In this document: in pieces, positions 27,144 through 48,746 of the stretch
Position numbering within the stretch: the first letter of the stretch is position 1
How the letters are laid out: every line of letters starts with the position of its first letter
Assembly: GCA_024235015.1 (NCBI GenBank)
Contig: JACKNG010000003.1
Coordinates: 280,397-344,396, forward strand
DNA from: Gammaproteobacteria bacterium
GTDB lineage: Bacteria > Pseudomonadota > Gammaproteobacteria > Ga0077536
Direction of reading: 5' to 3'
DNA length: 64,000 bases
Notes under the pieces: model-generated
The model's database searches: none
What the model was told of the DNA's origin: nothing
What the model saw: only the letters and a program-made list of their open reading frames with translations
Program-made: the position numbers and the translations under genes

Positions 27144-28004
27144 TCAGCGGCGCTGGCCGAACTCGAAGATGACGGTGTCGCCCTTGTTGTGCAGCACGTA
27201 CTGGGTACGCTCGCCGTCGCGCTGGCGGGCGAGGCGCGGCGCGTTCGCGTCGGTGGCGGCTCCCTGTCCGCCTGCTGCCGCCAGTGCCGCCGGGATGGTC
27301 GCGGCAGGCGCGCTCGTGCCCGCTCCGCTCGCTGCGGCCGCGCCGACGGGCTCAACGCCGGACGCCACCGCGGGGGCATCGGCGGCCACCTGGCGCTTCT
27401 CGATGAATACGTCCGGGTCGGCCGTGGGCAGGATGTGGCGGCGCGGTGCCGGTTCGAGGACAACCACGCGCTGTTCGTCGAGCAGCGCCGCGCAGGCGTT
27501 CCCGACCCGGTCGGCGAGATAGGCGCCGTCGCCGAGCCGCGCGGGATCGACCGGTTGGTCGACCTGTCGCGCCGCGACCAGTCGCCCGGCCGGGGTGCGC
27601 AGGCGGCAGTCGATGGCGACGACGTCGCCCTCGATGCGGCCGGCCTCGCGCGGTCCGCCGAGGGTGAAGGCGAAGCCGCGTTCGATCTCGGCGTGGCGCA
27701 ACGTGCCGATGGCGACGTCGAGGGTCAGCACGTGGTCGCCGGCCGGTGCACACGGCGCCGTCGTGCACCACGCGCTGTCGACGCGGGCGAAACCGTCGGC
27801 GGCGAACCCTTGCGCGAGCGCGGTTTCGAAGGCGTCCCTGGCGGCCGGGTCGAGTACCGCGTGACCGGCCACGCCGACGGCCAGGCGCGGGCCGTCCGCC
27901 GCGGTGGCGGCGAGCGCGGCGTCACCGCCGGCAGCGAGGACCGCGGCCATCAGCACGTCCGCCAGGCCCGGCGCGGGCGTGCAGGACATCGGCCGCGCCC
28001 TCAT
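27144..28004 (-). CDS. hypothetical protein (start overlaps ureG stop)
   Basis: The minus-frame ORF has plausible composition from [13 protein letters not shown].. to ..[17 protein letters not shown]; the overlapping plus-strand ORF is Arg-rich and antisense-like. No family recognised. Confidence 0.3.
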
Positions 28005-28639
28005 GCCGCGCGCGCCTCGAGCAGGCCGTCGGTGACGACGAAGTCGATAATGGCGTCGAGCCCCTCCCCGGTCTTGAGGTTGCTGAACACGAACGGCCGC
28101 GCACCGCGCTGGGCGCGGGCGTCGCGATCCATCACCTCGAGCGAGGCACCGACCAGGGGCGCGAGATCGATCTTGTTGATGACCAGCAGGTCCGAGCGTG
28201 TCACCCCGGGCCCGCCCTTGCGCGGGATCTTGTCGCCGGCCGAGACGTCGATGACGTAGATGGCGAGGTCGGCCAGCTCCGGGCTGAACATCGCCGACAG
28301 GTTGTCGCCGCCGCTCTCGACGATGACCAGTTCCAGCGTCGGGAACTCGGCACACAGGCGATCGATGGCGGCGAGGTTCATCGAGGCATCCTCGCGGATG
28401 GCGGTGTGCGGGCAGCCGCCGGTCTCGACGCCGACGATGCGCTCCGGTGCCAGCGCCTCGGCGCGCAGCAGGAACTCGGCGTCCTCGCGGGTGTAGATGT
28501 CGTTGGTGACGACGGCCATGTCGTAGCGCTCGCGCAGGCGCTTGCACAGGCGCTCGGTCAGGGCGGTCTTGCCCGAGCCGACCGGGCCGCCGATGCCGAG
28601 GCGCAGCGGACCGCGCGGGCGTTGGTCGAGGTTGCTCAT
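28001..28639 (-). CDS. ureG: urease accessory GTPase UreG
   Basis: [10 protein letters not shown]-loop and the ESGGDNL motif. Confidence 0.9.
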
Positions 28640-28663
28640 GGGGTCGTTCTCCATGCAGTGACT

Positions 28664-29314
28664 TCAGGAACGGAACAGGCGGGTGTACTGGGTTTCATGG
28701 GCGGCGCTGGCGAAGACCAGCCCTGGCGCGGTGTAACCGAGGTCGTCGTCGTCCTGCGCCAAGGCGTTCGTCACGCAGTCCTCGAGGCGATCGCCAAGGG
28801 CGAACAGCGCGCGTTGCGCGGCGGTCTGGCCGAGCGGCACGAGGCGGGTCGCGCCCTGCACCTGGTTCTCGGCCCAGGCCCACAGGTAACCGGCCAGGGC
28901 CTCGCGCGGGGCGATGCCCCAGTGCGCGCAGGCGAGCGCGAACAGCGCCGGGTAGCTGGCGAGCGCGAGGGTGTCGAGTTCCGGCGCGAGCGCGGCGAGC
29001 AGGCGCCGGAGCGCACTCGCCATGTCGGCATCTTCCCGCCGCAGTTCCGCCGTCTCGCGATACGTCGCGTGGCGCGCGGCGAGCGCAACGACGGCGGCGG
29101 CGTCGCCTGCCCGCGCCGCCGCGTGCACGCGCGCCATCAGCGGCAGGTCGACAGCGGTCATGGCGTTCTCGGCGAGGCCGCCGATCCAGGCGAGCGCCGT
29201 CGCCTCGTCGTGCACCCAGCCGGCGTGCACGGCGTACTCCAGGCCCTGCGAATAGCTGTAGCCGCCGACTGGCAGGGTCGGGCTGATCAACTGCCACAAT
29301 CGCGGATCAGGCAT
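28664..29314 (-). CDS. ureF: urease accessory protein UreF
   Basis: MPDPRLWQLISPTLPVGGYSYSQGLE... UreF family; start overlaps ureE by 8 nt. Confidence 0.8.
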   Translation of the reverse strand: MPDPRLWQLISPTLPVGGYSYSQGLEYAVHAGWVHDEATALAWIGGLAENAMTAVDLPLMARVHAAARAGDAAAVVALAARHATYRETAELRREDADMASALRRLLAALAPELDTLALASYPALFALACAHWGIAPREALAGYLWAWAENQVQGATRLVPLGQTAAQRALFALGDRLEDCVTNALAQDDDDLGYTAPGLVFASAAHETQYTRLFRS

Positions 29315-46977: not shown

Positions 46978-47050
46978 GGCCCTCGTAGACGGCTGTGTCC
47001 ATTCATGTGACGTGGAACCCTCCCCGCTCCACCCTGGCCGTCAGCGCGCG

Positions 47051-47374
47051 TCAGTGGCCGAGCATCCACGGCCGGCTGCCCGGGCGTCCGCCACCGAGCT
47101 TGTTCGCCGTGGCGGCGCCACCGCACGATTCGCCCGGCGCGTGGACGTGGCCGCAGCCGCCGCGGCTGGCGCGTCGTGGTTCGTGGGCGGCACGCTCGTT
47201 GCGCGCCCAGGCTTCGCGATTGCCCGGCGACATCAGGCCGAGACGCGGTGCGCCGACCTGGCGGGTCAGCCGCTGGTCGCATTCGGGACAGTGCACGGCG
47301 TCGTCGCGCGCCGCGATCGGGCGCAGCAGCGCGAAGCTGCCGTGGCTGCTGCAGTGGTAGTCGTAGACCGGCAT
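47051..47374 (-). CDS. fmdB: FmdB-family zinc-ribbon protein
   Basis: MPVYDYHCSSHGSFALL.....CPECD matches the CxxC...CPxCG FmdB putative regulatory protein signature. Immediately downstream of the formamidase gene. Confidence 0.6.
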   Translation of the reverse strand: MPVYDYHCSSHGSFALLRPIAARDDAVHCPECDQRLTRQVGAPRLGLMSPGNREAWARNERAAHEPRRASRGGCGHVHAPGESCGGAATANKLGGGRPGSRPWMLGH

Positions 47375-47519
47375 GGCGGGCTCCTCGATGGTGTCGCTGG
47401 CTAGCTGGTAACGGTTGACGGCGCCTGCCACGCGCCGTCACCCGCTCCGGTGTCGTCGCCCGTGGCCCGAAACGGCCGGCCCGCAGGCCGGCAAAGCAGA
47501 GGTCACGGGAAAAACTGCG

Positions 47520-48746
47520 TCACGAGGTCCTGGCCATGTCGACGCCGCCGAAGTCGACCGCCTTGGGTCCGTCGGCATTCAGCGAGATATCGAAGTCGAA
47601 GATGCCGGTCGGCAACCACAGGGTGGCGCAGGCATTGGGGATGTCGACGATGCCGCTGATGTGGCCTTCGACCGGCGCGGTGCCGAGAATGCCGTAGGCC
47701 TGTGCGCCCGAGTAGCCGAACTTCTTCAGGTACTCGATGGCATTGAGGCAGGCGCGGCGGTAGGCGACGTGGGCGTCGAGGTAGTACTGCTTGCCGTCCT
47801 CGTCGACCGAGATGCCCTCGAAGATCAGGTAATCGGAATACGACGGGTCGATGCGGCTGGGCTTGAAGATGGGATTGGTCACGCCGTACTTGGCCACGCC
47901 GCCCTTGATCAGGCTGACGCGGATGTCGAGGTAGCCGGCCATCTCGATCGCGCCGCAGAAGGTGATCTCGCCGTCGCCCTGGGAGAAGTGGATGTCGCCC
48001 ATCGACAGCCCGGCGCCCTTGACGTAGACGGGGAAGTACACCGTCGAGCCGCGCGAGAGGTTCTTGATGTCGCAGTTGCCGCCGTGCTCGCGCGGCGGCA
48101 CGGTGCGCGCGCCCTCGGCGGCGGCCTTGTCGCGCGCCGCGCCGGTGAGCCCGCCCATCACCGCGGTGGGCTCGAAGGGCAGCGTGGCGAGCGCCGGCAC
48201 GCGATCGGGATCGGTGTCGTAGAGCGCCTGCTCGCGGGTGTTCCAGGTCTTGAGCAGGTCCGCCGACGGCAGGCAGCCGATCAGGCCCGGGTGCATGGTG
48301 CCGGGGAACTTGACGTGCGGAATGTGGCGCGACGAGGCCCACACGCCGCTGTAGTCCCAGCACGCCTTGCGCGCCTCGGGATAGTGCTCGGTGAGGAAGC
48401 CGCCGCCGTTCTCGCGGGCGAACAGGCCGGTGAAGCCCCACGCCGATTCCGGCAGCACGCCGACGTCGAGGATGTCCACCACCAGCAGGTCACCGGGCTC
48501 GGCGCCCTCGACCCCGATCGGGCCGCTCAGGTAGTGCACCTTGGTCAGGTCGACGTCGCGGATGTCGTTGGCGCTGTCGTCGTTGTTGATCTGGCCGCCG
48601 GTCCAGTCGAGGCACTGGATGCGGAACTCGTCGCCCGGCTTGACCGTGCGTGCCATGGGAATGTCGGGGTGCCAGCGGTTGTGTATGACCTCGGCCTGCG
48701 CCTCGGCCGGCTTGTTCACGTCCACCTCGATCAGGGTCTGGATCAT
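47520..48746 (-). CDS. fmdA: formamidase / acetamidase-formamidase family amidohydrolase
   Basis: 408 aa, MIQTLIEVDVNKPAEAQAEVIHNRWHPDIPMA...; FmdA_AmdA family with fmdB downstream. GGAGG RBS. Confidence 0.85.
   Translation of the reverse strand: MIQTLIEVDVNKPAEAQAEVIHNRWHPDIPMARTVKPGDEFRIQCLDWTGGQINNDDSANDIRDVDLTKVHYLSGPIGVEGAEPGDLLVVDILDVGVLPESAWGFTGLFARENGGGFLTEHYPEARKACWDYSGVWASSRHIPHVKFPGTMHPGLIGCLPSADLLKTWNTREQALYDTDPDRVPALATLPFEPTAVMGGLTGAARDKAAAEGARTVPPREHGGNCDIKNLSRGSTVYFPVYVKGAGLSMGDIHFSQGDGEITFCGAIEMAGYLDIRVSLIKGGVAKYGVTNPIFKPSRIDPSYSDYLIFEGISVDEDGKQYYLDAHVAYRRACLNAIEYLKKFGYSGAQAYGILGTAPVEGHISGIVDIPNACATLWLPTGIFDFDISLNADGPKAVDFGGVDMARTS

Follow-up and report, generated by a model that had tools for sequence, protein, structure and literature searches.

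A gene cluster coupling the uptake of short amides to their hydrolysis has been described in Methylophilus methylotrophus, in which fmdCABDEF encodes a formamidase, a putative regulator, a porin and a binding-protein-dependent transporter for short amides and urea (PMC10781810, which summarises the work of Wyborn 1996 and Mills 1997 and 1998 on this cluster). The Methylophilus cluster is nitrogen-controlled, formamide and urea inducing it and ammonia repressing it. Counterparts for urea are the UrtABCDE-urease clusters, and in Pseudomonas putida urtABCD is induced under nitrogen limitation, an effect attributed to NtrB/NtrC and reported as NtrC-induced (PMC7801951). Bradyrhizobium japonicum carries two Urt-like sets, blr1449/50 beside urease and blr0968/69 beside the formamidase blr0972, and Selengut et al. 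proposed an amide substrate for the latter (PMC3098086). Here a 64,000-nucleotide (nt) stretch of a Gammaproteobacteria bacterium genome (GCA_024235015.1, contig JACKNG010000003.1, positions 280,397 to 344,396; hereafter the window) was analysed, in which 22 consecutive minus-strand genes place a formamidase, two Urt-type importers, a porin, a nickel permease and a complete urease in a single locus. Related loci are referred to by L numbers.

The cluster is made up of two already known modules set head to tail, each functional part coming from a described family. As in Methylophilus, FmdA, a zinc-ribbon FmdB, an adjoining importer of the binding-protein-dependent Liv/Urt family and a porin occur in the same locus. 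In contrast to Methylophilus, the porin is not upstream of fmdA and leads the second, urea-type transporter (FmdC and FmdD being compared by description), a recombinase-domain gene lies between fmdB and the binding-protein gene, and the same strand continues with a second complete Urt system, a nickel permease and urease. The urea part resembles the UrtABCDE-urease clusters of Anabaena/Synechocystis, Corynebacterium, Prochlorococcus (8HIC) and P. putida (PP_4841-44) in that a five-gene ATP-binding cassette importer adjoins ureDABCEFG and UrtA has eight of eight urea contacts; it departs from them in its dedicated leading porin, an N-terminal extension of about 250 amino acids (aa) on UrtB and a NicO-type permease between urtE and ureD. 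As in B. japonicum, two Urt paralogue sets are present in one genome, one by urease and one by an acetamidase/formamidase, although the sets are contiguous and co-directional here and at separate loci there, and the pocket basis was not analysed in that work. The pairing of a Urt-like importer with a formamidase is therefore already known, by experiment and by bioinformatics. Lineage-specific features are that the two modules are joined contiguously and co-directionally, that a porin heads the urea operon with its long UrtB, that a NicO-type permease is inserted and that the promoter design combines orfX, a DNA box and sigma-54-type elements; the only new lead is the pairing of orfX with the box. 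The system of bioRxiv 2024.02.22.581678 was considered and set aside as not relevant, since it has a binding protein of another family (SBP_bac_5) beside FmdA_AmdA amidases.

With good confidence, the locus is read as a formamide import and hydrolysis module joined to a urea import and urease module, the two being expressed from about four co-activated sigma-54-type transcription units. In the first module (46.5-48.7 kb together with 41.4-46.5 kb), UrtA2 and UrtB2C2D2E2 would import formamide or other very short amides, which cytoplasmic FmdA would split into formate and ammonium, with FmdB (a zinc ribbon) and OrfX (a recombinase-type DNA-binding domain) in accessory, probably regulatory roles. 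In the second (28.0-41.2 kb), the porin would let urea through the outer membrane, UrtA would bind it and UrtBCDE import it; the NicO-type permease would supply nickel, UreDEFG would load it into UreABC and urease would release ammonium. Uptake, outer-membrane passage, nickel supply and the hydrolysis of urea and short amides had been described as physically tied together in an earlier note on this DNA, and the gene identities agree with that description. The genes of the formamide module, apart from orfX, are as follows.

47520-48746, minus strand: fmdA, formamidase, 408 aa (NCBIfam NF045496 FormamaseFmdA equivalog, 757 bits against a cut-off of 500)
47051-47374, minus strand: fmdB-family zinc-ribbon protein, 107 aa, C-terminus ...RPWMLGH (TIGR02605, 46.8 against 31.3 bits; Pfam Zn_ribbon_8)
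45251-46474, minus strand: urtA2, probable FmdD-type periplasmic binding protein, 407 aa (TIGR03407, 541 bits; pocket W-S-Y-F-E-Y-W-V-S)
44184-45110, minus strand: urtB2, short-form permease, 308 aa (TIGR03409, 394 bits; start matching the NCBI call)
42935-44134, minus strand: urtC2, permease, 399 aa (TIGR03408, 443 bits)
42156-42908, minus strand: urtD2, ATPase, 250 aa (TIGR03411, 368 bits)
41431-42120, minus strand: urtE2, ATPase, 229 aa (TIGR03410, 340 bits)

The gene run was established from a frame plot of GC content at third codon positions (GC3), a survey of start codons, and NCBIfam and Pfam matches, as raw lists of open reading frames (ORFs) are noisy in a window of about 70% GC. The earlier note had counted 25 minus-strand genes between 28001 and 48746; the span (ureG stop to fmdA start), the strand and the order (fmdA, fmdB, recombinase-domain ORF, urtA2B2C2D2E2, porin, urtABCDE, small membrane protein, ureDABCEFG) all hold, but the number of genes is 22. 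NCBI gene calls on the near-identical contig L085 (GCA_020444845.1) give the same genes with the same lengths and set urtB, urtB2 and urtC at 542, 308 and 355 aa, respectively. All assignments except those of the porin, orfX and the nickel permease exceed curated profile hidden Markov model (HMM) cut-offs, and the gene content is far beyond chance. FmdB also gave 99 bits, under the cut-off of 120, with the RPWMISH-domain model. UrtA2 is 100% identical to a protein from an NCBI Gammaproteobacteria metagenome-assembled genome; an exact-sequence look-up of FmdA gave no match.

The comparative synteny that the note had proposed to check was assessed by a UrtA2 scan taking one genome per species, which gave 80 loci with identities of 77-96%. 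Their genomes belong to Gamma-, Alpha- and Betaproteobacteria, Verrucomicrobiota, Planctomycetota and other groups, and the window proteins were mapped onto the loci. The fmdA-fmdB pair adjoined urtA2B2C2D2E2 in 72 of the 80 (46 downstream, 17 upstream and 9 divergent), fmdB coming after fmdA in every fmdA-carrying locus; seven of the eight remaining loci end at a contig edge, so that only L063 is truly without fmdA. Urease was found in only 10 of the loci and a second urtA in only 3. The joint formamide and urea arrangement recurs in L001-L003 and L086 and, in another order, in L083. The presence of near-identical UrtA2 in Verrucomicrobiota and Planctomycetota suggests that the fmd-urt2 module has spread horizontally. 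Over L001-L083 the binding proteins are the most conserved parts of both transporters, UrtA2 being 77-96% identical across phyla against 52-80% for its permeases and ATPases, and UrtA 81-86% identical against 62-70% for UrtD/E. L063 has, upstream of urt2 and divergent from it, genes for a hybrid histidine kinase of 1149 aa and a response regulator of LuxR type (6211-9660, minus strand), an arrangement that hints at amide- or urea-sensing kinases built on a UrtA-like fold. UrtA-like domains are often fused into long proteins, of 600-3745 aa among 50%-identity representatives.

Both Urt sets comprise five genes in the order A-B-C-D-E, each over its curated cut-off (TIGR03407-03411). As the earlier note had held, they are true paralogues and differ in having a long-form or a short-form UrtB (542 aa for UrtB, 308 aa for UrtB2); the five pairs are 40-52% identical, and the duplication is therefore old and not recent. 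The same note had stated that specificity cannot be read from sequence, which now appears too pessimistic. In Prochlorococcus UrtA, urea is contacted by the conserved residues W120, S122, Y141, Q144, E146, Y190, N246 and S274, and urea N1 donates a hydrogen bond to each of the Q144 and N246 side chains, mutation of either residue strongly reducing or abolishing binding (PMC10392092). In alignments to that protein (8HIC), UrtA (38565-39854) has all eight urea-contact residues, whereas in UrtA2 (45251-46474) the two side chains facing urea N1 are replaced, Gln by Phe at 144 and Asn by Val at 246, with Trp at neighbouring position 192. The replacement is conserved: the signature W-S-Y-F-E-Y-W-V-S was present in 81 of 81 UrtA2-type proteins of the 80 loci, and the three UrtA-type proteins in those same loci carry Q and N. 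Among the 120 top database homologues the F/W/V signature was full in 119, the one exception having Ala for Ser at the last position. Across about 150 aligned UrtA-like domains (50%-identity cluster representatives), Q/N was kept in 109, and F/V was confined to the UrtA2 cluster. In these alignments the fmdA-linked UrtA2 proteins form a distinct, narrow clade of high conservation.

Both binding proteins resemble crystallised UrtA (8TG1, 7S6E, 8HIC), the acetamide sensor AmiC of Pseudomonas aeruginosa (1PEA/1QO0) being more distant. AmiC and UrtA2 share the same fold and the same nine pocket columns; in 1QO0 these columns hold the residues given as lying within 5 A of acetamide. At the columns where UrtA2 has Phe and Val, AmiC has Pro (107) and Val (206), so that the two share Val in the Asn246/Val206 column, and in the Gln144/Pro107 column both are non-polar. 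They differ in that AmiC is a cytoplasmic regulator of the amidase operon, with AmiR as its partner, and is about 31% identical, while UrtA2 is secreted, belongs to a transporter and shares about 52% identity with true UrtA. On this alignment the UrtA2 sub-site for one NH2 group of urea is apolar, as would be expected were the hydrogen of formamide or the methyl group of acetamide in that position. The replacement of Gln and Asn, its conservation in orthologues and the parallel with AmiC suggest that UrtA2 is probably an FmdD-type binder of formamide or other short amides, with a Phe/Trp/Val pocket predicted to prefer formamide or acetamide over urea, and the earlier suggestion that one of the transporters is FmdDEF-like is borne out for the fmdA-proximal one. 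The comparison offers a pocket rule for annotation, with Q/N marking urea binders and F/V plus Trp192 beside fmdA-fmdB marking probable formamide or short-amide binders, and a testable prediction for the conversion of a urea pocket into an amide pocket. Because the UrtA2 clade occurs widely in metagenomes of marine and soil origin, counts of urea-uptake potential are probably too high and those of formamide use too low.

The urea module consists of the following genes.

39909-41138, minus strand: outer-membrane porin, 409 aa, with signal peptide, leading the urea-uptake unit (ExtI-porin model, 90 bits, under the cut-off of 150)
38565-39854, minus strand: urtA, urea-binding protein, 429 aa (TIGR03407, 573 bits; residues compared with 8HIC)
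36643-38271, minus strand: urtB, long-form permease, 542 aa (TIGR03409, 426 bits on the C-terminal 290 aa; NCBI call with the same start)
35372-36439, minus strand: urtC, permease, 355 aa (TIGR03408, 454 bits)
34557-35375, minus strand: urtD, ATPase, 272 aa (TIGR03411, 379 bits)
33862-34557, minus strand: urtE, ATPase, 231 aa (TIGR03410, 325 bits)
33170-33865, minus strand: NicO/UreH-like nickel permease, about 205-231 aa (NicO, 20.7 bits; TIGR00802, 27 bits; HACDADH motif)
32356-33186, minus strand: ureD, 276 aa (Pfam UreD, 186 bits)
31955-32257, minus strand: ureA, urease gamma subunit (NF009712, 174 bits)
31612-31929, minus strand: ureB, urease beta subunit (NF009682, 173 bits)
29912-31615, minus strand: ureC, urease alpha subunit, 567 aa (TIGR01792, 988 bits)
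29307-29897, minus strand: ureE (NF009751, 165 bits)
28664-29314, minus strand: ureF (Pfam UreF, 122 bits)
28001-28654, minus strand: ureG (TIGR00101, 337 bits)

The earlier label of an amide porin calls for refinement, as the porin appears not to be attached to the amide module. The closest characterised porin to ExtI is, according to the ExtI paper, M. methylotrophus FmdC, and the family probably serves both amides and urea, as FmdC reportedly does; nevertheless, the terminator after urtE2, the porin's own promoter and the porin-urtABCDE order in relatives place it with the urea module. Specifically, on three long contigs (L081-L083) a porin homologue heads a porin-urtA-urtB-urtCDE unit with a UrtB of 555-583 aa. 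In L081 and L082, ureD and the urease genes come after this unit; in L083 no urease lies 3' of it, a divergent ureD fragment is found at the far edge of the locus, and urt2-fmdAB is located just upstream of the unit. Porin homologues are common and some carry Porin_O_P; in the Methylophaga loci L049 and L052 a 36%-identical porin lies upstream of fmdA. In L002 and L003, whose flanking genes are 81-93% identical to those of the window, the porin in the corresponding position shares only 44% identity with the window porin and is either fast-evolving or replaced.

UrtB is built of an N-terminal signal/transmembrane segment, a helical extension of about 230 aa and the permease domain. The N-terminal 250 aa (37522-38271, minus strand) gave a faint HEAT_2 match, and the extension is 36-66% identical against 78-97% for the permease domain, marking it as fast-evolving; long UrtB proteins co-occur with porin-led urt operons in L081-L083. 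A word-index homologue search with the extension returned one weak match, and its single-sequence AlphaFold model (predicted local distance difference test, pLDDT, of 53) was too poor for a fold search. The small membrane protein downstream of urtE had been named hupE/ureJ. A Pfam scan to E 0.01 gave NicO alone and NCBIfam gave TIGR00802 alone, with no HupE_UreJ match, and the gene instead shows a weak NicO/NiCoT similarity and the motif HACDADH, which we take to be the HX4DH signature of NiCoT-type nickel permeases. Like NiCoT/UreH-type permeases, it has this motif in its first hydrophobic segment and sits in a urease cluster; unlike classical NiCoT proteins, it is shorter and has weak HMM scores of 21-27 bits. 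Its GTG start overlaps the urtE stop codon (GTGA). The nickel urease set is complete, with three structural (UreABC) and four accessory (UreDEFG) genes. Antisense to the 5' part of ureC, the Rfam model 5_ureB_sRNA (RF02514) matched at 31180-31466 (plus strand) with 105 bits against a gathering threshold of 40; this may represent an antisense RNA as in Helicobacter or equally a model artefact, since a model antisense to conserved urease coding sequence may reflect protein-coding conservation only. A possible last gene of the urease unit is an Ala-rich ORF of 281 aa (27144-27989, minus strand), which starts 11 nt past ureG, has coding-like GC3 and matches nothing in Pfam or NCBIfam.

The earlier description of short or overlapping junctions applies from urtC to ureD (overlaps of 1-17 nt) and within ureABCEFG, but six gaps of 128-293 nt interrupt the run. 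Four of these contain promoter-like elements, and the urtE2-porin gap additionally has a strong terminator. Sigma-54-type elements were defined by -24 GG and -12 GC at fixed spacing, on the right strand and upstream of a gene, and by conservation in orthologous loci, which gave four sites. The predicted signals are listed below.

48813-48828, minus strand: sigma-54-type -24/-12 element upstream of fmdA, TGGCATGTTGTGTGCA (position conserved in orthologous loci)
46520-46535, minus strand: sigma-54-type -24/-12 element upstream of urtA2, TGGCATGTTTACTGCA (in 15 of 15 orfX-containing loci)
41204-41219, minus strand: sigma-54-type -24/-12 element upstream of the porin, TGGCCTGCTTCTTGCT (consensus search)
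38320-38335, minus strand: sigma-54-type -24/-12 element upstream of urtB, TGGCACGGAGTGTGCT (one consensus mismatch; conserved in L001 and L002)
41354-41372, minus strand: intrinsic terminator after urtE2, 8-bp GC stem and T-rich tail, TTTTCATGTCT (folds as predicted; same hairpin in L001)
38499-38537, minus strand: GC-rich stem-loop just 3' of urtA (-49.7 kcal/mol, z = -2.9)

Together, the terminator and the four promoters point to about four transcription units and not to one operon, and a reading of the cluster as a single operon was rejected on these grounds. The predicted units are fmdA-fmdB-orfX; urtA2 to urtE2; porin-urtA; and urtBCDE with the nickel permease and ureDABCEFG. Within 260 nt upstream, the -24/-12 motif was found for fmdA in 17 of 75 loci, for urtA2 in 27 of 81 and for the porin in 6 of 10, against 0 of 80 for the internal gene urtB2 and 0 of 77 for urtC2 and a background of 0.11 per kb. 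A hairpin equivalent to that after urtA is present in L002 and L081-L083, and a sigma-70 scan found nothing. It is proposed that, when nitrogen is limiting, an enhancer-binding protein encoded elsewhere would activate the four units jointly.

Three of these promoters share a further upstream element, which was examined along with the small gene orfX.

46603-46977, minus strand: orfX, stand-alone 'Recombinase' DNA-binding domain, 124 aa, core of about 88 aa (Pfam PF07508)
48892-48899, minus strand: TTAGTGCA box, 70 nt upstream of the fmdA -24 element (motif search)
46599-46606, minus strand: TTAGTGCA box, 70 nt upstream of the urtA2 -24 element, including the orfX stop codon (motif search)
41283-41290, minus strand: TTAGTGCA box, 70 nt upstream of the porin -24 element (motif search)

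The window contains four copies of TTAGTGCA against 0.33 expected; the fourth (1732-1739) is probably due to chance, as it lacks a -24/-12 partner and overlaps a plus-strand gene's stop codon. The spacing from box to -24 element was 66-72 nt in 22 promoters from 15 loci, in genomes ranging from AT-rich to 70% GC, and enhancer-binding proteins usually bind at roughly this distance, about 70 nt upstream of -24. A composite pattern of box, spacer and sigma-54 element occurred three times in the window, in none of 100 shuffles and, among the loci, only in 22 of 98. The box accompanied fmdA in 14 of 15, urtA2 in 14 of 15 and the porin in 4 of 4 promoters of orfX-containing loci, against 1 of 59, 5 of 65 and 0 of 5, respectively, in loci without orfX. 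In its 11-mer form it was present 27 times in 272 kb of orfX-containing loci, each time upstream of fmdA, urtA2 or the porin, and was absent from 1.22 Mb of loci without orfX. As the loci with orfX belong to a single lineage, shared ancestry confounds this co-occurrence. The candidate OrfX-target box is also written TTAGTGCATAA. It was not assigned as an NtrC site, having only a loose likeness to the NtrC half-site TGGTGCA.

No resolvase catalytic domain was found in OrfX or in its aligned orthologues, whose length is 87-131 aa in most loci, and OrfX is accordingly no recombinase. The aligned core sequences matched PF07508 in 13 of 13 cases (best E 2e-9), and the 88-aa core has 16 residues invariant among orthologues and is 32-34% identical to plasmid 'recombinase family' proteins. 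The gene always lies between fmdB and urtA2, in 14 loci from genomes and 12 from metagenomes whose sequence ranges from AT-rich to 70% GC, and a metagenome scan seeded with orfX gave 12 true homologues, all in the order fmdA-fmdB-orfX-urtA2. An orfX profile found no match among PDB sequences or in a phage collection, and the single-sequence AlphaFold model (pLDDT 47) was too poor for a fold search. A tentative proposal, on balance open to doubt, is that OrfX is a domesticated serine-recombinase DNA-binding domain acting as a transcription factor at the TTAGTGCA(T)AA boxes of fmdA, urtA2 and the porin, which would tie the formamide and urea modules into one local regulon. As it has no AAA+ domain, OrfX cannot itself be the sigma-54 activator. 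If the proposal is true, it would be a candidate case of a recombinase DNA-binding domain reused for gene regulation. A second conserved element, ATGCACCAA (46606-46640, minus strand; equivalents in L001-L004), lies about 25 nt upstream of the urtA2 box, and AT-rich relatives have TGTGCAC at its position. It falls inside the otherwise unconserved 3' end of orfX, where it encodes 'MHQ', so that selection appears to act on the DNA motif and not on the protein, and the element may serve as another site for a regulator.

Several observations weigh against the reading of the locus as separate formamide and urea modules under sigma-54-type control. The characterised Methylophilus FmdDEF system transports urea too, so that UrtA2 may be dual-specific; UrtA2 exceeds the UrtA HMM cut-off and retains six of the eight urea contacts; and in about six loci (Methylophaga, Cocleimonas, L040) no Urt system other than urt2 was seen beside urease within 10 kb, urt2 adjoining ureDABCEFG with no second urt in view in L025, L026, L040, L049, L052 and L072. 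The plain sigma-54 consensus is not enriched window-wide (25 matches against 25.7 expected), which leaves the promoter case resting on position, conservation and the composite pattern, and neither rpoN nor an enhancer-binding protein gene lies within the 64-kb window. The points on UrtA2 would fit a dual specificity, in which UrtA2B2C2D2E2 imports urea as well as short amides and the two transporters overlap, differing mainly in affinity or induction. Such an overlap is rather unlikely given that both urea-N1 side chains are apolar in UrtA2, when single mutations of Q144 or N246 are enough to impair binding strongly in Prochlorococcus UrtA, and that the window genome keeps a separate UrtA of the full urea type. 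Simple redundancy goes further and takes both systems as urea-specific, with the proximity of fmdA incidental. Both Urt sets do exceed all five urea-transporter equivalog models, but the association of UrtA2-type loci with fmdA-fmdB (72 of 80, in three arrangements and several phyla) and not with urease (only 10), the conserved F/W/V signature confined to the UrtA2 clade and a paralogue divergence that speaks against recent duplication make this a very improbable account.

The joining of the two modules could also reflect a chance juxtaposition of fmd/urt2 and porin/urt/ure, with no regulatory or functional coupling. A terminator lies between them and they are apart in most genomes, as the survey counts for the second urtA and for urease indicate; yet the porin promoter of module 2 shares the TTAGTGCA box and its 70-nt spacing with both promoters of module 1, and L001-L003 and L086 repeat the joint arrangement, as does L083 with a changed order, so that uncoupled neighbours seem improbable. 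To the same low degree we credit the view that orfX is left over from a mobile-element recombinase, is in decay and plays no part in the cluster: its match to the Recombinase domain is partial, the window protein alone scoring 20.7 bits, just under the PF07508 cut-off of 21.1, but the conserved core, the constant position and the matches of all 13 cores are at odds with decay, and neither a resolvase domain nor att-like repeats flank the gene.

No link to the cluster was seen for the flanking genes, which encode phosphoenolpyruvate carboxylase, fumarase, an acyl-CoA synthetase-like protein, adenylate cyclase, DUF1302/DUF1329 proteins and a DEAD helicase. The DUF1302/DUF1329 (LolA-like) outer-membrane protein pair (49119-51993, plus strand) is divergent from fmdA and conserved beside it in L085, with no evident link. 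Elsewhere in the window, a protoglobin-GGDEF diguanylate cyclase, a globin-coupled sensor (20799-21953, plus strand), adjoins a molybdopterin oxidoreductase (18527-20734, minus strand).

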